DNA of 38,458 nucleotides from Escherichia phage vB_EcoM-606R7: sequence record ON470580; one strand, given 5' to 3'. Below are positions 1,956 through 32,864 of this stretch, piece by piece. Numbering within the stretch: the first letter of the stretch is position 1; every line of letters begins with the position of its first letter. The notes under the pieces are model-generated. The model worked only from the letters and a program-made list of their open reading frames with translations. It was not told the origin of the DNA and did no database searches. The position numbers and the translations under genes were made by a program.

Positions 1956-2311
1956 CAGTGAGTGACCTCTTCAAAGGTACAGTTAAAATCGGTATACATG
2001 GCATTATCCGAAATGCTCCACTCCCTGCAGACAACCCGGACAGTCCTGTTGTGTTTTGGCGGACGCCACAAAAAAGCACGAATCCCGGCATGACGGGATA
2101 AAAAACTGTCCAGCGCGGCACGGGAATATTCATCTGTGACACGAAATACCGGTTTAAACGTTTTCAGATCCGCATTCAGACCACCAGCCCGTCGCTGTTC
2201 ATATCCGTCACCAAACTTTACCGTAATAACTGATGGCTTTCGTGTCGTCTCCATCCCCTCACGGGGGATCCAGTTAAAAACTTCAGGCTCAGGCACTGTA
2301 CAATCCTCCAT
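1955..2311 (-). CDS. M: Minor tail protein M (lambda gpM family)
   Basis: ORF aligns with recalled lambda gpM (VRFGDGYSQR versus VKFGDGYEQR). Start placed at the MEDCTVPEP methionine; an alternative start is at 2254. Confidence 0.75.
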   Translation of the reverse strand: MEDCTVPEPEVFNWIPREGMETTRKPSVITVKFGDGYEQRRAGGLNADLKTFKPVFRVTDEYSRAALDSFLSRHAGIRAFLWRPPKHNRTVRVVCREWSISDNAMYTDFNCTFEEVTH

Positions 2312-5300
2312 CCCGACGCGATGACTGCATAATTGACACAACCCTGCTGTCGATCAGATCCACCAGTCCCCTGGCTGAGCGCGCATCTATCTCGCCATTG
2401 CTCCCTTGATTCTGAATGCTGATGTGATACACGGGAGAATAAACAAATCCACCACCACCATTCACATTTCCAATGGCCCTGACCCCAAGAGAGCCGTCCG
2501 CTGCCCGTGTCAGTGGCATGATTGCTTCAGGCCCGGCCTCGCCCATCAACCCGGCACCTTTCGCAAAAGCAAAATACGTCGGTGTATCCACAATAGTGTT
2601 ACTGTAAGCACTCAGATTTGCCGATGTGTAAACACCACCTTTTGCGTTTGCCACTGCCCCCGAAATCCATCCGCCGACCGTACCAAGCCACCCTCCGGCA
2701 CCGGAGAGTGATTTCAGTCCGTTAACAATGGCTGCATTCATCAGAATTTTTGAAACTTCCCGGAGAACTGAACTCCCCCAGTTCCTCCAGTCCACAACAT
2801 TCCCGGCCAGTGCATCGGAAATATTTGATACCAGCCCGTCCATCGTGGAAACGACAGCATCTGCCGCCTGTGAAGCATAATCGGTGGCACTGTCTGCCCA
2901 GTTGGTCAGTCCCTCCTGGAGTCCGGCATTCCAGTTATTACGTAAAGCATCGGCCTTTGCATAATAATCCTGCTGATCGCTGAGACGCTCTTCCAGATAT
3001 TTTTTATTCAGTTCTTTCTCCTGTTTCCACAGGGCTTCTTCAATTTCTCCGGCCTGATACTGTCTCAGCAGCTCGTTATTTTTCTGCTCAAACGCCTGCC
3101 GGATACTCCACATTTCCTGGAGTCGTTCACGCATCCGTGAGCCTTCACCATATCCCAGCAACTGCGCTTCGTCAGATGCCCGGGCACTGGCATTACTGTC
3201 CGCCAGACTGCTCTCATACGCAGCAAGCTGCTCACGAATCTTTTTCTGGTCGATGAGTGCTGCATTCTGCAAAAGCGTTTTTTTCTGCGCTTCTGACAGG
3301 GTTGATAATTCGCCCTGACTGACCTGATATTTCATCTTAGCCAGTTCAGTATTCTGCCCTGCCAGTGCTATTTGTTCTTTTTGCTGTTTAATCAGCCGTT
3401 TATAAATATCTTCTGTTTTTTCCGCTTCGGTCTTTTTATACGCTTTGGGTTTATTTGCCTGGTTATTTCGCCAGGCATCCAGTGAGTTATTGATATAATT
3501 CTGTCTGGCTGTCTGATACGCCTCTCCCACAAAGCCGAGATCATCCGCAGCATAACCCAGGCGGGCACGCTCACGGGCTTCCCCCTTCAGGCGGGACAGA
3601 GCCAGTTCGCGCTCGCTGTTATTCAGTGCGGTCTGCTGTTTATCATCCAGGGTTGCCTGTGGTAGCCGTAACGGTACATTCACCAGCCCCTGTCGCTGCA
3701 GAAGTAATTCATTACCGAGCCCGAGAAGGCGATTAAACTCGGTATGCTGCCCATTCATGATCAACAGGGACTGATACGCTTTGTTTTGTTCCGCGGCCTG
3801 TTGACGGATCAACGCCACCCGTCGCTCCTCCAGCCCGGCAAGCACATCCTGAATGGATTGCGCTTTGCCCTGCATTTGTGTGAGACGGGACTGTTCAACT
3901 GCCAGTTGATTTGTTGCTTCTGCAAGCCCTTCTGTGACAGTTTTTACCGACGTCATGTGGTTAATCATAAAACCGTTATCGGTTGTCCAGCCCGGGTTTG
4001 CCAGCACATACTGATAGCCAGCAATTTTTTCCTGTAAGGATTTAATCTTACTTTTCTGCTCGTCAATTAACCTGTTTTGCTCATCAAGTGCCTGCCGCGT
4101 CTTTTCCTCATTATCTGACGCTTCAGGAAGCGACATTGCCGACGTTTTCTGGCGAATTTCGTCGATTGTTGCGGCATACTGGCGTGCAGATTCTCTGGCC
4201 TGCTCCTGATTCTGATACATCGTGTACCAGGCCGTCGCCCCCAGCATGACGAGTCCCGGCACACCACCAACCAACCCCAGCGCACCACTTAACAGACGAC
4301 TCCCCACTGACGTGACAGTATTCAGCGTTGTCTGTGCAGCTGTTCTGGCCGCAATATTACGGGTAAGTGACGCCTGGGCAGCTGTCAGCTTCGCTTCTGC
4401 TGCGGCCTGCCTTTCGGTACCGCGAGCAGCAACAACCGCCTGTTGCGCACGATAAACCGCCGCACGCGCCCTGGCGGTTGCTATCTGTGTCCCCCGAAGT
4501 TGCGCTTCAGCAAGAGCCACTTCGTTTCTGGCTGCAGTAATTAATCCGGCAGTTGCAGATCCAGCAGACGACGCCATATTGCCAAAATATCGGGCTACCC
4601 CGACGGCAACCAGTGCGCCAGCTGCAGCAGCCACGGTATCAATATTGTCTGCAACACCATTCAACACCCCGGTGAGTGTCTTTGTCACTCCGCTTGCCTC
4701 GTTCGCACCACCAACCCAGGCCATAAAGGCGTTTTCAACTTTGGTTGCAGAGGATGAAACAGTATCAGGCATTGCTGCATATTCATCACGCAACGCCCCA
4801 AGCTGACTAATCAGTGCAGGAACAACCTTATCGGCGGTCAGTTTTCCGTTATCCGCCATGGCCTTCAGATCCTTACGGGCAACACCCATTCCCGCAGCCA
4901 GCGCACGAATAACACGATCGCCGTTCTCATTCACAGAGTTAAATTCTTCACCGCGCAGCACTCCCTGCGCCAGTGCCTGACTGAACTGCGTGATCACCGA
5001 ACTGGCTTCTGCTGTACTGGCACCGGATAATTTCAGGCCCGTGGAGATCGCCTCGGTGACTTTCAGTACCTCCTCAGAACTGTAGCCATACTCCCGCATG
5101 GAAGCTGCAGAGCGGGCAAAAAGGCTGGCGTTATCAGAAAACGCCGTTCCCGTTCTCTGGCTGATTGCCATTAATTCACGTTGTGATACCTGAAAATCAT
5201 CACTGGACTGTGAAGCCTGCTTCAGACGGGCATTTACTGAATTCCACTCATCGGCGAGAGAAATAAGATGACCGGTAGCAAAAGCTCCGGCAAATGCCCC

Positions 5301-5522
5301 CGCCATATTCAGTGCCGAAGATTTAGCTGTATTTATCTGATCCGTCACTTCTGCCAGTGCACGCCGCATTTCACGGGATGCAGCAGCGGACTGCCGGCCT
5401 CCGTTCTGCATGGTACGGTAGTAATCCTGCCCCATACGCGAAGCCCGGGAGATCTCTGACTGGAATGACCGGGAATTTGCCGAGATTTTAATAATCAGTT
5501 CACGTAATGTCGCCACACTCAT
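2289..5522 (-). CDS. Tail tape measure protein (gpH analogue)
   Basis: 1077-aa ORF, Ala/Gln-rich and coiled-coil-like, in the position between G/T and M; its C-terminal region resembles the lambda H C-terminal region. RBS GGAG precedes the ATG at 5522. Confidence 0.85.
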   Translation of the reverse strand: MSVATLRELIIKISANSRSFQSEISRASRMGQDYYRTMQNGGRQSAAASREMRRALAEVTDQINTAKSSALNMAGAFAGAFATGHLISLADEWNSVNARLKQASQSSDDFQVSQRELMAISQRTGTAFSDNASLFARSAASMREYGYSSEEVLKVTEAISTGLKLSGASTAEASSVITQFSQALAQGVLRGEEFNSVNENGDRVIRALAAGMGVARKDLKAMADNGKLTADKVVPALISQLGALRDEYAAMPDTVSSSATKVENAFMAWVGGANEASGVTKTLTGVLNGVADNIDTVAAAAGALVAVGVARYFGNMASSAGSATAGLITAARNEVALAEAQLRGTQIATARARAAVYRAQQAVVAARGTERQAAAEAKLTAAQASLTRNIAARTAAQTTLNTVTSVGSRLLSGALGLVGGVPGLVMLGATAWYTMYQNQEQARESARQYAATIDEIRQKTSAMSLPEASDNEEKTRQALDEQNRLIDEQKSKIKSLQEKIAGYQYVLANPGWTTDNGFMINHMTSVKTVTEGLAEATNQLAVEQSRLTQMQGKAQSIQDVLAGLEERRVALIRQQAAEQNKAYQSLLIMNGQHTEFNRLLGLGNELLLQRQGLVNVPLRLPQATLDDKQQTALNNSERELALSRLKGEARERARLGYAADDLGFVGEAYQTARQNYINNSLDAWRNNQANKPKAYKKTEAEKTEDIYKRLIKQQKEQIALAGQNTELAKMKYQVSQGELSTLSEAQKKTLLQNAALIDQKKIREQLAAYESSLADSNASARASDEAQLLGYGEGSRMRERLQEMWSIRQAFEQKNNELLRQYQAGEIEEALWKQEKELNKKYLEERLSDQQDYYAKADALRNNWNAGLQEGLTNWADSATDYASQAADAVVSTMDGLVSNISDALAGNVVDWRNWGSSVLREVSKILMNAAIVNGLKSLSGAGGWLGTVGGWISGAVANAKGGVYTSANLSAYSNTIVDTPTYFAFAKGAGLMGEAGPEAIMPLTRAADGSLGVRAIGNVNGGGGFVYSPVYHISIQNQGSNGEIDARSARGLVDLIDSRVVSIMQSSRRDGGLYSA

Positions 5523-5532
5523 TCTCCGGACG

Positions 5533-5554
5533 AAAAAAAACCGCCGAAGCGGTT
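5533..5554 (-). terminator. Terminator-like hairpin (UUCG tetraloop plus U8) in the T-H spacer
   Basis: Minus-strand RNA reads AACCGC-UUCG-GCGGUU followed by eight U, directly upstream of the tape-measure RBS. Confidence 0.4.
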
Positions 5555-5562
5555 ATGTTGAC

Positions 5563-5853
5563 TCACTGAGACACTATTAAAAGCGCGTTTTCCAGTCCGG
5601 CAAATGGATCTGATACGCCTTCTGTCTGCTCCTTCTCCCACTGAAGAAGCGCATCATTCAGTGGCACTTTGACCCCCTGCGCACCGTAAACAGCTGAAAC
5701 AATCTGGGCAGCCCGGATATCAGCCCGTTCGTCCCCCAGCGGACTGAACCTGTCAAATTCTGCCCACATCATGATTTCTGATGCTGACATTTCCCGGCGT
5801 AACTGTGACAATGTGCGCCCCATCCTGAGCGCCAGCATCATCAGAAAACGCAT
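5563..5853 (-). CDS. T: Tail assembly chaperone T segment (expressed as a G-T fusion by -1 frameshift)
   Basis: 96-aa ORF with the Phage_tail_T-like motif MLALRMGRTL...SEIMMWAEF; its frame is entered from G at the slippery site 5868-5876. Confidence 0.7.
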   Translation of the reverse strand: MRFLMMLALRMGRTLSQLRREMSASEIMMWAEFDRFSPLGDERADIRAAQIVSAVYGAQGVKVPLNDALLQWEKEQTEGVSDPFAGLENALLIVSQ

Positions 5854-5864
5854 CCCCGGAAGCG

Positions 5865-6251
5865 CTACTTTTTTTTAACCTCGCCGGCATCACTGATCAG
5901 TTCCAGAGACTGCCGAAGAAGCCGCGCATGCACCGGACCATACACGGCAATCACCTGTTCACGATCATCCTCTGAAAATACAGGTTGCAGTCCGGTATCA
6001 CACAGAACATCAATGAACAGTTCAACATCTGCCTCCAGATTTCGGCGGGCGCGCTCCGCAACGGATAACGGTGTCTCATCATCTTTTGCTTTAACGATCT
6101 CCTGCCAGCGCAACCAGGCTTCTGCAGAAGGTTCCCGTAATACAACCGTTGCTCCCTCCCATTCATGCACATCAACAGTTTTATGGCGAAACCCCGACAT
6201 CGTTGCCAGTGCCAGATTGCGGATATTTTTAGTCATCACATCTATCCTCAT
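5865..6251 (-). CDS. G: Tail assembly chaperone G
   Basis: 128-aa ORF between the major tail gene and the tape measure, ending GEVKKK-stop on a slippery A-run. Confidence 0.75.
   Translation of the reverse strand: MRIDVMTKNIRNLALATMSGFRHKTVDVHEWEGATVVLREPSAEAWLRWQEIVKAKDDETPLSVAERARRNLEADVELFIDVLCDTGLQPVFSEDDREQVIAVYGPVHARLLRQSLELISDAGEVKKK
5868..5876 (-). promoter_or_regulatory. Programmed -1 ribosomal frameshift site (A AAA AAG) for the G-T fusion
   Basis: mRNA reads GTT AAA AAA AAG TAG; slipping one base back at A AAA AAG continues as K-V-A-L-P-G-M-R-F-L into the T frame. The T frame has a TAA just upstream, so it can only be entered by the shift. Confidence 0.65.
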
Positions 6252-6958
6252 TAACTGACGGTAACAGTGCAGGAAGTGGAGGTCACCTTGTTAACAGGGC
6301 TTGCTGAATCAGAAATCTCGCAGGTATACGCACCGGCATCACCTGATGCTGCTGATGCCTTACTGAATGTTGCCGCCGTCTGTCCGGAAACAGGAGAACT
6401 ACCTTTCTTCCAGACATAAGAATAAGGCGGCACACCACCGGCAGCCTCAACCACCATTTCGAGTTTCGCTCCGGCAGAAACCTGCAGCGTGCTGTTTAAA
6501 TCGACCTTCACTTTCAGCGGCTCTGTCGTCAGCACAGGTTTACCTTTCAGGCGCAGGGAAAACGTTGCAGCCACAACACCATTGGTTCCTGCAGACCAGG
6601 TATGCTGACGCACCTCTGCCATAAAGGTAAATCCGTTTCCTGACGGAAAAATAACTTTAAAGCCATACGTGGTGTCATTGTCATAGGCACTGCGCAACGC
6701 GTTCTGGGCAGCATTGAGGTAAAAGTTGCCTGACATGGAAATCTCTGACGCGGCACCAAGACCGTTAATATTTTCCTGCTCAACAGAACACAGCGTGGTG
6801 ACATCAATATCCTGCTTTTGTCCTGCGGTAAACTGCACCTCTTTGATTGTACAGCTCAGACCAAGATAGCTGGCAGAATCCAGGGTTTCTGCTGTTACCG
6901 GTGCAGACGAAATCATAATTTTCGTCAGTTGCGAACGCTCAAAATTAGAGGACATACT
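6251..6958 (-). CDS. Major tail protein (gpV analogue)
   Basis: Position directly upstream of G/G-T; Ser/Thr/Gly-rich C-terminal region resembling an Ig-like domain. Start taken at MSSNFE behind RBS AGGAGA; the ORF track extends to 7006. Confidence 0.75.
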   Translation of the reverse strand, partial: SMSSNFERSQLTKIMISSAPVTAETLDSASYLGLSCTIKEVQFTAGQKQDIDVTTLCSVEQENINGLGAASEISMSGNFYLNAAQNALRSAYDNDTTYGFKVIFPSGNGFTFMAEVRQHTWSAGTNGVVAATFSLRLKGKPVLTTEPLKVKVDLNSTLQVSAGAKLEMVVEAAGGVPPYSYVWKKGSSPVSGQTAATFSKASAASGDAGAYTCEISDSASPVNKVTSTSCTVTVS

Positions 6959-6972
6959 CGTCTCCTGAAAAT

Positions 6973-6993
6973 AAAAAACCCGCCAGCGGCGGG
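6973..6993 (-). terminator. Hairpin plus U-tract immediately upstream of the major tail gene RBS
   Basis: Minus-strand RNA reads CCCGCC-GCU-GGCGGG followed by UUUUUU, about 15 nt before RBS AGGAGA. Confidence 0.35.
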
Positions 6994-7014
6994 TGGGTAA
7001 AATCATTAACGACC

Positions 7015-9924: not shown

Positions 9925-10611
9925 TTAGAAGTTCAGATTTTTCAGTGCATTCAGTGCAGAGCCCACATCCTCAGCGTCGCGCAGGGACAGTGCGCCATAG
10001 CCCCCGGCCATGAATGCTTTGGCCTGGGTACGGGAGAGTCCGACATCACGCAGGACTCTTTCGATTTTTTTCTGTTCGGGGATTTCCCCGCGGGCCAGTG
10101 CGTTCTTGACGTCGCTGATCCGCGCCTCGTCGTTAGACGGGAACGTCACCAGGCTGACTTCCCAGAGGTCGATTTCTTTCAGCAGAAAGGCTTCTTTGCT
10201 CCGGTCGTATTCCCAGTCTTTCAGGACGTACCCAATAGAAAGGCCGGTTAACGAACCGGCCTTCATGTGTGCATGTGCGCGTTTTGCGAGGGGATCATCA
10301 TCAATAAGCAACCGTCCCCTGACGTAAAGCCCGACATCGTCTTCCTTCATTTCGGTGTAAACACCGATGGGTTCATCCATGCGGTGCTGCCAGAGCAGCG
10401 CAGGTAACGCTTTTCTGTCACTCCACGCCCGCAGGGAAGCAGCAAATGCCCCGGACATCACCACATCATCGTGGCTGTCCTTTACACCAAAGACGGAGCC
10501 ATACCCTTCAAACTCACCGGAGTCACTGACAGATTTCAGACTCAGCGGTACATCAAGACGTTGTTTCGTCTGCATTGGCGTTATCCTTCTGCTTACCGGC
10601 TTTACTGCCAT
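9925..10611 (-). CDS. Prohead protease (HK97 gp4 family)
   Basis: Contains the EFEGYGSVFGVKDSHDDVV motif and sits between portal and capsid. Start is uncertain; the ORF overlaps the portal 3' end. Confidence 0.8.
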   Translation of the reverse strand: MAVKPVSRRITPMQTKQRLDVPLSLKSVSDSGEFEGYGSVFGVKDSHDDVVMSGAFAASLRAWSDRKALPALLWQHRMDEPIGVYTEMKEDDVGLYVRGRLLIDDDPLAKRAHAHMKAGSLTGLSIGYVLKDWEYDRSKEAFLLKEIDLWEVSLVTFPSNDEARISDVKNALARGEIPEQKKIERVLRDVGLSRTQAKAFMAGGYGALSLRDAEDVGSALNALKNLNF

Positions 10612-16688: not shown

Positions 16689-16763
<75 letters not shown>

Positions 16764-16766
16764 ATA

Positions 16767-16842
<76 letters not shown>

Positions 16843-16844
16843 AC

Positions 16845-16921
16845 TGGACCGCCACCGGGGACTCGAACCTCGCACACTCAACTTAAAGGGTTGACGCTCT
16901 TTCCTGATGAGCTAGTGGCGG
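16845..16921 (-). tRNA. tRNA gene with an atypical anticodon loop (CCUUUAA; best guess anticodon UUU, Lys)
   Basis: Sits in the array with 2-nt spacers. Acceptor CCGCCAC/GTGGCGG (C1-G72), TAGCTCA D-arm start, T-loop TTCGAGT, CCA encoded; C at position 33 and one T-stem mismatch. Confidence 0.5.
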
Positions 16922-16922
16922 T

Positions 16923-16998
16923 TGGTGGCCCTTGCTGGATTTGAACCAGCGACCTGGCGATTATGAGTCGCTCGCTCTCACCACTGAGCTAAAGGGCC
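16923..16998 (-). tRNA. tRNA-Ile2-like (gene anticodon CAT; ileX/ileZ type, alternatively elongator Met)
   Basis: GGCCCTTTAGCTCAGTGGT...CGACTCATAATCGCC...GGTTCAAATCCAGCAAGGGCCACCA resembles recalled E. coli ileX. Confidence 0.75.
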
Positions 16999-20354: not shown

Positions 20355-20510
20355 TTACTCCTCAGGTTCGTAAGCTGTGAAGACAGCGACCTCCGTCTGG
20401 CCGGTTCGGATTCGTACCTCGCAGAGGTCTTTCCTCGTTACCAGTGCCGTCACTATGACGGTTAAACAGATGACGATCAGGGCGATTAGCATCGCCTTTT
20501 GCTGCTTCAT
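20355..20510 (-). CDS. hok: Hok/Gef-family type I toxin (HokD/RelF-like)
   Basis: 51-aa sequence MKQQKAMLIALIVICLTVIVTALVTRKDLCEVRIRTGQTEVAVFTAYEPEE matches recalled HokD; long untranslated leader upstream (20511-20800). Confidence 0.85.
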   Translation of the reverse strand: MKQQKAMLIALIVICLTVIVTALVTRKDLCEVRIRTGQTEVAVFTAYEPEE

Positions 20511-20800
20511 AGCCTGCTTCTCCTTGCCTTTCGGCACGTAAGAGGCTAACCTAGATTTGCCGTTCATAGATTGAGCCTCAGATTAATGTTAAGCGTCTTG
20601 CAGGACGCGTAATGTTAACTGGGGCTTTTCTCTACCTGCCGTTGGTGTTCATGCCCGAGGCAGATAGCCTCAAGCACCCGCAGCAATTCTACTTAACTCT
20701 CCTTTTCCCGCAAACCGTTTTTACCCCCAGCGGCAAATCGAATACACCACCAGCGCCACCGCCATCGCAATTCCTACCGTTGTGAATGCTTCAGGCCAAG

Positions 20801-27230: not shown

Positions 27231-27288
27231 TTTCTGGTGACGTTTGGCGGTATCAGTTTTACTCCGTGACTGCTCTGCCGCCATTTTT
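27231..27288 (+). ncRNA. dicF: DicF-like small RNA (cell-division inhibitor)
   Basis: TTTCTGGTGACGTTTGGCGGTATCAGTTTTACTCCGTGACTGCTCTGCCGCC followed by ATTTTT matches the DicF sequence as I recall it; GGCGG...CCGCC terminator stem; sits between ydfC and dicB. Confidence 0.6.
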
Positions 27289-31707: not shown

Positions 31708-31797
31708 TGGCGGAGAGAGGGGGATTTGAACCCCCGGTGGAGTTGCCCCCACTCCGGTTTTCGAGACCGGTCCGTTCAGCCGCTCCGGCATCTCTCC
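31708..31797 (-). tRNA. serU: tRNA-Ser (anticodon CGA), serU-like; probable prophage attachment target
   Basis: Hand-folded: GGAGAGATGCCGGAGCGGCTGAACGGACCGGTCTCGAAAACCGG... with long variable arm and CCA; 3' end faces the integrase gene. Confidence 0.8.
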
Positions 31798-32788: not shown

Positions 32789-32864
32789 TCCTCTGTAGTT
32801 CAGTCGGTAGAACGGCGGACTGTTAATCCGTATGTCACTGGTTCGAGTCCAGTCAGAGGAGCCA
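32789..32864 (+). tRNA. asnT: tRNA-Asn (anticodon GUU), asnT-like; HPI attachment site
   Basis: TCCTCTGTAGTTCAGTCGGTAGAACGGCGGACTGTTAATCCGTATGTCACTGGTTCGAGTCCAGTCAGAGGAGCCA read directly. Confidence 0.9.

Follow-up and report, generated by a model that had tools for sequence, protein, structure and literature searches.

A conserved class of tail assembly chaperones, G/GT, produced by -1 frameshifting was reportedly set out by Xu, Hendrix and Duda in 2004. In HK97 the pair is gp13/gp14; in the record of that phage, the gp14 CDS is a join that carries the remark 'translated due to a -1 frameshift'. In lambda, G and GT are made at a ratio of about 30:1, with G binding the tape measure protein and T recruiting the major tail protein; both G and GT are needed for tail assembly and are absent from virions (PMC5009743). 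Antonov et al. 2013 (NAR 41:6514, PMC3711429) grouped 41 HK97-like frameshifted genes into a cluster named 'phage tail assembly chaperone', and two cassettes of the cluster were assayed in that study using a GST-MBP reporter in E. coli (PMC3711429, Suppl. Table S2). An E. coli O157/Stx-prophage Phage_TAC cassette with A AAA AAG TAG gave 7% -1 frameshifting, and the second cassette (...GCG_GGA_AAG_CCG_TAA...), which is of the mEp390 type, gave 6% ± 0.61 (PMC3711429, Suppl. Table S2). The heptamer A AAA AAG is read by the single tRNA-Lys(UUU) of E. coli (PMC3711429, PMC4066793). A_AA.A_AA.G is among the three most efficient heptamers in E. coli and A_AA.G is the top tetramer (Sharma et al. 2014, PMC4066793); in that study, reporters with the motif alone and no stimulator shifted much less than the Antonov cassettes did (PMC4066793).

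The DNA analysed here, referred to as the window, is a stretch of 38,458 nucleotides from Escherichia phage vB_EcoM-606R7 (sequence record ON470580), and all positions count from its first letter. We are highly confident that ribosomes undergo a programmed -1 frameshift at its G/T junction, as in the conserved G/GT chaperone class; the junction is located in the HK97-like tail module of an E. coli prophage. Several features can be read directly from the sequence: the anatomy of the site, the homology of both halves, the conservation of frame, position and A AAG core, and the coding constraint on the -1 frame. A preliminary description of the locus had proposed the standard tail chaperone mechanism, a proposal borne out by the gene order, the pairing of Phage_TAC_1 with Phage_tail_T, the prevalence of the -1 arrangement among relatives, the HK97 precedent and the 7% cassette.

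HK97 gp13/gp14 resembles the window in its domains (PF06222 and PF06223), its gene order and its 224-aa fusion, with 63% identity in G and 62% in T (the T part of gp14). The position of the shift is homologous, ...EK|VSTPGVKFLMSLALRMGRT in HK97 and ...KK|VALPGMRFLMMLALRMGRT in the window. The sites themselves differ: HK97 has the imperfect G GAA AAG, whereas the window has the perfect A AAA AAG, and the HK97 zero frame continues for five more codons (SQPPA) before its stop, whereas the window heptamer abuts the stop. In HK97, moreover, a moron (gp15) separates gp14 from the tape measure gene, and the window has only a terminator-like hairpin at this place.

The likeness to lambda gpG/gpGT lies in the mechanism, the gene position and the T domain (PF06223). 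Read directly, the lambda junction has GCG GGA AAG in phase and gives ...SAGK|VFDGELSFALKLAREMGRP; it is analogous to the junction of the window, with K|V followed by ...ALxLAxxMGR.... However, the lambda slip site precedes the G stop by 22 nt, the G protein of lambda falls in PF06894 (Phage_TAC_2) rather than PF06222, and T measures 144 aa in lambda compared with 101 aa in the window. The window protein gave no match to PF06894, the lambda gpG family, and pairwise BLAST of both halves against lambda was not significant (BLASTP against lambda G, E=5); the T-domain link between lambda and the window is made by the Pfam profile PF06223 only. The window G presumably shares the role of lambda G, occupying the same gene position with a different sequence family.

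Compared by eye, the 7% cassette appears to be the junction of Stx2 phage 1717 (locus L007 in our survey). It shares with the window the A AAA AAG TAG C context and the Phage_TAC_1 family, and the two G proteins are about 67% identical. It differs in having AGA upstream (an A6 run) where the window has AAA (A8), and in its downstream sequence. As this cassette frameshifts, the mechanism has been shown to work on the same heptamer and stop within this protein family.

Gene G, the T frame and the slip site

The genes of the module lie on the minus strand in the order major tail, G (5865-6236), T frame (5563-5874) and tape measure. Further upstream of the major tail gene are gp17-like tail completion, HK97 gp10-like and head closure/connector proteins and an HK97-fold capsid. 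The major tail tube protein gene (6251..6955), the product of which has a C-terminal Ig domain, likely starts at ATG 6955, with AGGAG 5 nt upstream, and PGAP gives a major tail CDS of 705 nt in relatives. Gene G (5865..6236) encodes a tail assembly chaperone of 123 aa. Its start is likely ATG 6236, which has GAGGA 7 nt upstream (dG -6.1) and is the ATG at which PGAP places the G start in relatives; the mechanical ORF, 6251..5865, comes to 128 aa and opens at ATG 6251, which has no Shine–Dalgarno (SD) sequence. The tape measure protein gene (2289..5522, 1077 aa) matches PF06120 HK97_TLTM, PF20155 and PF09718 (TMP_3, Tape_meas_lam_C). The tape measure protein is the expected binding partner of G and GT, and the major tail protein the expected partner of the T domain.

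A terminator-like hairpin with a T-run (5539..5554, minus strand) lies past the T stop and ahead of the tape measure gene; it flanks the gene pair and is not a frameshift signal. Another terminator-like hairpin, at 6994-6978, is found just upstream of the likely major tail start and falls within the longer major tail ORF. These two junctions, at 5554-5539 and 6994-6978, are those where HK97 has annotated terminators and a moron. The junction between T and the tape measure gene holds a small moron gene in relatives; an inserted gene of 342 nt occurs there in relatives.

The T segment (5563..5868, minus strand, -1 frame) has GTA 5868..5866 as its first codon and TGA 5565..5563 as its stop, and encodes VALPGMRFLMMLALRMGRT...IVSQ. 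The conceptual CDS of the GT fusion, complement(join(5868..6236, 5563..5868)), reads base 5868 twice and contains no internal stop; its inferred 224 aa equal the length inferred for HK97 gp14 from the joined CDS span, and also the 224 positions of phrog_14766. Residues 6-128 of the fusion match Pfam PF06222 Phage_TAC_1 over profile positions 1-124 of 124 (189.1 bits, cutoff 25, E=3e-56; HK97 gp13 itself scores 203 bits). Residues 156-224 match PF06223 Phage_tail_T over profile positions 1-69 of 73 (67.3 bits, cutoff 25.9, E=2e-18), a profile on which lambda GT scores 52.6 bits. G also matches PDB 2OB9, the HK97 tail assembly chaperone (E=8e-48). An NCBIfam scan of G and T gave no match and was uninformative. 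On PHROG 14766 (224 positions), G covers 1-121 and the T frame 123-220. The two ORFs thus fill contiguous halves of the profile, indicating that it was made from full-length fusions.

The 3' end of gene G reads, on the minus strand, ...GAT GCC GGC GAG GTT AAA AAA AAG TAG CGC TTC CGG GGA TGC GTT..., and the C terminus translates to GEVKKK-stop. The slippery heptamer A AAA AAG (5868..5874, minus strand) is in phase with G and has the form X XXY YYZ, with AAA for the P site and AAG for the A site. Its As belong to an A8 run (5869..5876), and the G of AAG is base 5868. The preliminary description had read the end of G in the same way, and the span that it assigned to the signal, 5865-5876, is the A8 run plus this G plus the stop. 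The zero-frame G stop, TAG (5865..5867, minus strand), lies directly 3' of the heptamer, and a TAA in the -1 frame (5875..5877, minus strand) lies directly 5' of it, closing the T frame just upstream as had been claimed. The -1 frame therefore opens at -7 from the G stop, reads CGA GGT TAA AAA AAA GTA GCG CTT CCG GGG ATG CGT across the junction, and after this TAA contains 103 open codons before TGA 5565..5563. The G and T frames are both open over 7 nt only, which are the A AAA AAG itself (5874..5868). Because the TAA at 5877..5875 shuts the T frame upstream, a productive -1 shift is possible on the heptamer alone. A one-base backward slip there enters the T frame, again as anticipated, and conceptual translation gives ...GEVKKK|VALPGMRFLMM..., that is, ...GEVKKK|VALPGMRFLMMLALRMGRT...; the predicted peptide across the fusion junction is ...VKKKVALPGMRF....

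This is the sole in-phase X XXY YYZ heptamer in G. With both strands counted, the window holds 13 copies of the heptamer, and dinucleotide-preserving shuffles give 8.7 ± 2.7; the difference is not significant, and enrichment was therefore dropped as a line of evidence. Since the heptamer is not rare in the window, the signal rests on phase, frame overlap and conservation, and not on mere presence.

Conservation of the junction among relatives

Escherichia phages vB_EcoS-*, PhiR49_2, Evi and phi467 share the region at 97-98% identity, and the prophage matches 903/5426 complete E. coli genomes, always in the chromosome. For wider comparison we used named phages of decreasing identity, 80 IMG/VR loci and 70 loci from a one-genome-per-species collection spanning Enterobacter, Serratia, Pectobacterium, Xenorhabdus, Proteus, Providencia, Morganella, Yersinia, Pantoea, Orbus and others (individual loci are given as L numbers). 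In 151/157 loci, down to approximately 30% identity, the conserved T motif ..LALRxG(R/K)T is read in the -1 frame when G is taken as the zero frame. Two of the six exceptions (L042 and L071) have a run one A shorter (A7); two (L106 and L111) have T in another frame, probably through indels; and two (L161 and L162) were missed by the regular expression, their -1 ORF and junction being intact.

Slip motifs were tabulated for the 72 species-level and named-phage loci. AAAAAAG is found in 44 of them, followed by GGAAAAG (8), GGGAAAG (7), AGCAAAG (6), GGCAAAG (4), AGAAAAG (2) and GGTAAAG (1); GGAAAAG is the HK97 type and GGGAAAG the lambda-like type. The preliminary description had drawn attention to the difference between the site in the window and the lambda site, G GGA AAG. 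The lambda site is indeed as given there, but the difference is nothing out of the ordinary: A AAA AAG is the commonest motif of the family and a textbook heptamer in E. coli.

Despite this variety, A AAG is present at the homologous position in all 72 loci, and in each of them the -1 frame after it encodes V-x-x-P-...-F-L-M-x-L-A-L-R. The AAG codon and the A preceding it have zero entropy in 56/56 unique ungapped relatives, whereas the other Lys codons in the same G genes comprise 603 AAA and 198 AAG (25% AAG, 198/801). The G stop adjoins the slip site in 97/132 unique relatives and lies 3-30 nt downstream in the others; adjacency is therefore common but is no requirement.

Further evidence for translation in the -1 frame comes from the entropy by codon position in the 56 unique ungapped sequences, in which the periodicity changes frame precisely at the slip site. 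In the 8 codons upstream of the site, the entropies at zero-frame positions 1/2/3 are 0.91/1.05/1.79. Across the 9 codons from the site to the conserved Met, the corresponding values are 0.86/0.83/1.50 in the -1 phase (position 3 versus positions 1+2, Mann-Whitney p=0.0095), and the same bases taken in the zero-frame phase give 0.83/1.50/0.88. Residues before the conserved Met are strongly kept (Val 94%, Pro 98%, Phe 98%), and an ATG occurs anywhere in the 9-codon stretch in 26/56 sequences only. The -1 periodicity and the conserved V, P and F indicate that the stretch before the conserved Met is translated in the -1 frame.

Alternatives to ribosomal frameshifting

G and T might instead be separate proteins, with T initiated at ATG 5853 or 5841, perhaps by termination–reinitiation. 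These ATG codons lie 12 and 24 nt past the G stop. ATG 5853 (5851..5853, minus strand), which the preliminary description had named as the ATG of T itself, opens a 96-aa ORF, MRFLMM..., and is used by depositors as the T start, whereas PGAP starts T at ATG 5841. The only SD-like run before T in the window, GGGG, is placed 11 nt before ATG 5841 (duplex dG -5.7), and in relatives from Burkholderia and Bordetella the conserved Met codon shares bases with the G stop, in the form TGATG. However, the GGGG abuts ATG 5853, at 0 spacing, and the run simply stems from the Pro-Gly codons and is not itself conserved. In place of ATG 5853, close relatives (L051, L074-78 and L035) have ATA, ATT or GTG, and HK97 and Stx phage 1717 have no counterpart; the ATG probably encodes a Met inside GT. 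Nor is the conserved Met universal: two Xenorhabdus loci (L107 and L112) have Leu in its place and no ATG in the first 30 codons. Across relatives neither a start codon nor an RBS for T alone is conserved, the marginal GGGG before 5841 being specific to the window. The codon periodicity ahead of the conserved Met, the retention of V, P and F in that stretch, the invariance of the A AAG core where Lys elsewhere in G genes is 75% AAA, and the frameshifting of a homologous cassette also speak against a separate T, and we judge this reading very improbable. Judging from the sequence, some T-only protein may arise from its own initiation at ATG 5841, as a minor product and not by the conserved mechanism.

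The fusion could also be made mainly by transcriptional slippage, RNA polymerase adding one A on the A8 run and so placing G and T in frame in the mRNA. The clade of the window has an 8-A homopolymer, and homopolymers of about 8 or more nt are typical of programmed transcriptional realignment (PMC3711429). The inferred product, ...VKKKVALPG..., would be the same as that of ribosomal slippage. As both routes yield one protein, the junction peptide that the preliminary description had offered as a check, KKVALPGMRF, cannot tell them apart; trypsin would moreover destroy it. The family at large speaks against this as the main route: 28/72 loci have sites unable to support transcriptional slippage (GGGAAAG, GGAAAAG, GCAAAG and GTAAAG), and the homologue that was assayed has A6 only and yet reached 7%. 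The invariant final G of A AAG matters for re-pairing of tRNA-Lys but not for the polymerase, and the direction in the family is strictly -1, which is characteristic of ribosomal frameshifting (PMC3711429) rather than of transcriptional realignment, where the direction varies among orthologues. Transcriptional slippage is thus unneeded for the family as a whole and unlikely to be the main source of the fusion, with a small additive contribution possible in the A8 clade. A last reading, that the junction marks an originally single gene decayed or pseudogenised by a frameshift mutation in a defective prophage, with no functional recoding, would accommodate the homopolymer-length variants (A7 in L042 and L071), the protein clusters P0002 and P0003, which reflect indels in the run, and P0035, an in-frame G-T fusion. 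Such in-frame or other-frame variants are rare, however; a split with T at -1 is the rule across many genera, the junction also occurs in entries that were deposited as phages (Evi, phi467 and vB_EcoS-*), and both halves are under coding constraint. We consider decay to be scarcely credible.

Mechanism, stimulators and annotation

Under programmed -1 ribosomal frameshifting, most ribosomes would make G and terminate at TAG 5867..5865. The ribosomes that slip are probably a minority, a few percent in this prophage. In these, one tRNA-Lys(UUU) would sit on the AAA of the P site and another on the AAG of the A site, the two would re-pair one base back on AAA AAA, and reading would resume from GTA 5868..5866 along the T frame to give the 224-aa G-T fusion. 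The adjacent stop codon may add to slippage; such 'shifty stops' were reportedly described by Weiss et al. in 1987. The roles of the products in assembly are inferred from lambda gpG/gpGT: many G and few GT copies would coat the tape measure protein, the T domain would bring in the major tail protein, and the finished virion would contain neither G nor GT.

No stimulator of the shift was identified near the site. Downstream folds of 50 and 90 nt are no better than those of shuffled sequences (z=+0.99 and -0.53), and RNAalifold on 18 diverse relatives found 0 conserved pairs downstream of the site. A GCGCUC...GGGCGC hairpin approximately 36 nt downstream was rejected as a stimulator, as it merely encodes ALRMGRT and is lost where those residues change. 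In dnaX, the SD-like stimulator lies about 10–14 nt upstream. The GAGG of the Glu-Val codons in the window was likewise set aside as an SD stimulator; it is too near the site, at a distance of about 4 nt on the 5' side, and close relatives such as L074 lack it. With no conserved structure or SD stimulator found, the site seems to depend on how readily tRNA-Lys(UUU) slips on A AAG by itself. E. coli dnaX tau/gamma and IS911/IS3-family orfAB use the same A AAA AAG and the same tRNA-Lys(UUU). However, in dnaX the heptamer is accompanied by an SD-like element and a hairpin (PMC3711429), upstream and downstream, respectively, and shifting is about 50%, whereas neither element was found for the window. 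The dnaX shift also truncates its protein, whereas that of the window extends it.

The prophage carries a tRNA cluster of its own at 16689-16998. It includes a 'tRNA-Lys(UUU)' (16845-16921, minus strand, Rfam 44 bits), which is a relative of the Stx-phage argN tRNA-Arg(UCG); the anticodon loop is CCUUUAA in the prophage tRNA (anticodon UUU, C33) and CUUCGAA in argN. Were this tRNA expressed late and able to decode AAA/AAG, it could shift the G:GT ratio at A AAA AAG, and the phage would then tune its own frameshift efficiency through its tRNA(UUU), but we regard this as very doubtful. As a requirement for frameshifting the tRNA was rejected: phi467 has the G/T junction but, of the tRNA cluster, matches the Thr and Gly genes only, and the PPompW_699 copy of the tRNA has a D-arm deletion, from which we conclude that tRNA(UUU) is not required. 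A limited literature search for ileZ/argN/argO found nothing. In a milder version of the idea, approximately a quarter of the family (GCA AAG TAA, GAA AAG and GTA AAG) may shift by single-tRNA slippage in the A site, which may take place beside the stop codon without canonical re-pairing in the P site.

The frameshift is a known recoding event of the HK97 gp13/gp14 type and, biologically, it is nothing new. What it changes is the annotation. In 5/5 inspected records (three RefSeq/PGAP genomes and two phage records), T is a stand-alone CDS of 92 or 96 aa, named 'phage tail assembly protein T' or 'DUF4035', with an arbitrary start inside the fusion (for the depositors, the counterpart of ATG 5853), and there is no joined CDS. 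The inspected records of a very common prophage thus lack the GT product of 224 aa. The table of slip motifs, with its perfect and imperfect heptamers and invariant A AAG, could help automatic annotators to set the join.

Annotation of T and length variants of the slip site

In the PGAP and depositor records of the prophage that we inspected (L001–L005), T is a separate coding sequence of 92 or 96 aa that begins at an internal ATG, and none of these records contains a joined G–T coding sequence. These public records have an annotation gap at T. The lambda RefSeq record (NC_001416, locus L163) is similar, with T given as a plain coding sequence (10115..10549) and not as a G–T join.

Public data also contain homopolymer-length variants of the G–T slip site. 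In two IMG/VR contigs (L042 and L071, positions about 1876–1884), A7 replaces A8, and G is read into the +1 frame to give a product of 165 aa. The same read-through of G is seen in P0002, a protein cluster with 54 members; P0003 and P0004 are further proteins grouped with the run-length variants. One protein from a JGI metagenome, P0035, joins G and T in frame but lacks the residues VARP, consistent with a 13-nt deletion. These variants (L042, L071, P0002–P0004 and P0035) could reflect either errors in sequencing or genuine mutations.

Terminator-like hairpins in the tail region

On the minus strand at 5539–5554, between the stop of T (5563) and the start of the tape measure gene (5522), lies a hairpin that resembles a terminator, AACCGCTTCGGCGGTT, with a T-run after it. 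In relatives, the same junction holds a small moron gene. In two records of the prophage (L004 and L005) it is a 342-nt gene labelled 'zinc ribbon' or hypothetical, in Salmonella phage SP-016 it is an ORF of 336 nt, and in HK97 it is gp15. Putative terminators are also annotated at this junction in the HK97 record.

The mechanical major tail ORF (6251–7006, minus strand, 251 aa) contains a strong hairpin of the same type within its first codons (6978–6994, minus strand; 7 bp, of which 6 are GC, then a T-run), and the true start is therefore probably ATG 6955. This ATG has AGGAG 5 nt upstream and gives a 705-nt coding sequence, matching the PGAP call in relatives. A putative terminator is found at the same junction in HK97, between gp11 and gp12.

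RNA genes of the prophage and its probable boundary

Four tRNA genes, Met/Ile2-like (CAT), Lys (TTT), Thr (TGT) and Gly (TCC), form a cluster on the minus strand (16689–16998), the matches to which include a phage named 'SerU-LTIIb'. The 'tRNA-Lys(UUU)' (16845–16921, minus strand) has the lowest Rfam score of the cluster, 44 bits, and is related to argN, the tRNA-Arg(UCG) of Stx phages. In the anticodon loop it reads CCUUUAA, compared with CUUCGAA in argN, and so has the anticodon UUU with C33 instead of the usual U33; it also has U73. By its anticodon, it would be able to read the slip-site codons. Phage phi467, which has the same G–T site, matches the cluster only at the Thr and Gly genes, so the site does not require the Lys tRNA.

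Two further Rfam matches lie inside the prophage: a sok antitoxin RNA of the hok/sok-type toxin–antitoxin system (20505–20679, minus strand; 102 bits) and the DicF sRNA (27232–27283, plus strand; 73 bits). The genes for tRNA-Ser(CGA) (31708–31797, minus strand) and tRNA-Asn(GTT) (32789–32864, plus strand) are probably host genes marking the prophage boundary or an attachment site near serU.

Imperfect heptamers across the G–T family

About a quarter of the G–T family carries imperfect slip heptamers (loci L009, L108, L110, L121, L128, L130–L132, L150, L151, L157, L097, L141 and HK97, L006). These sites read A/G GCA AAG TAA, G GTA AAG TAA or A GAA AAG TAA, and G GAA AAG in HK97. Because P-site tRNA re-pairing after a −1 slip is poor at such heptamers, and because the only invariant part across G–T sites is the tetranucleotide A AAG, usually adjoining a stop, sequence comparison suggests A-site single-tRNA slippage in these lineages.
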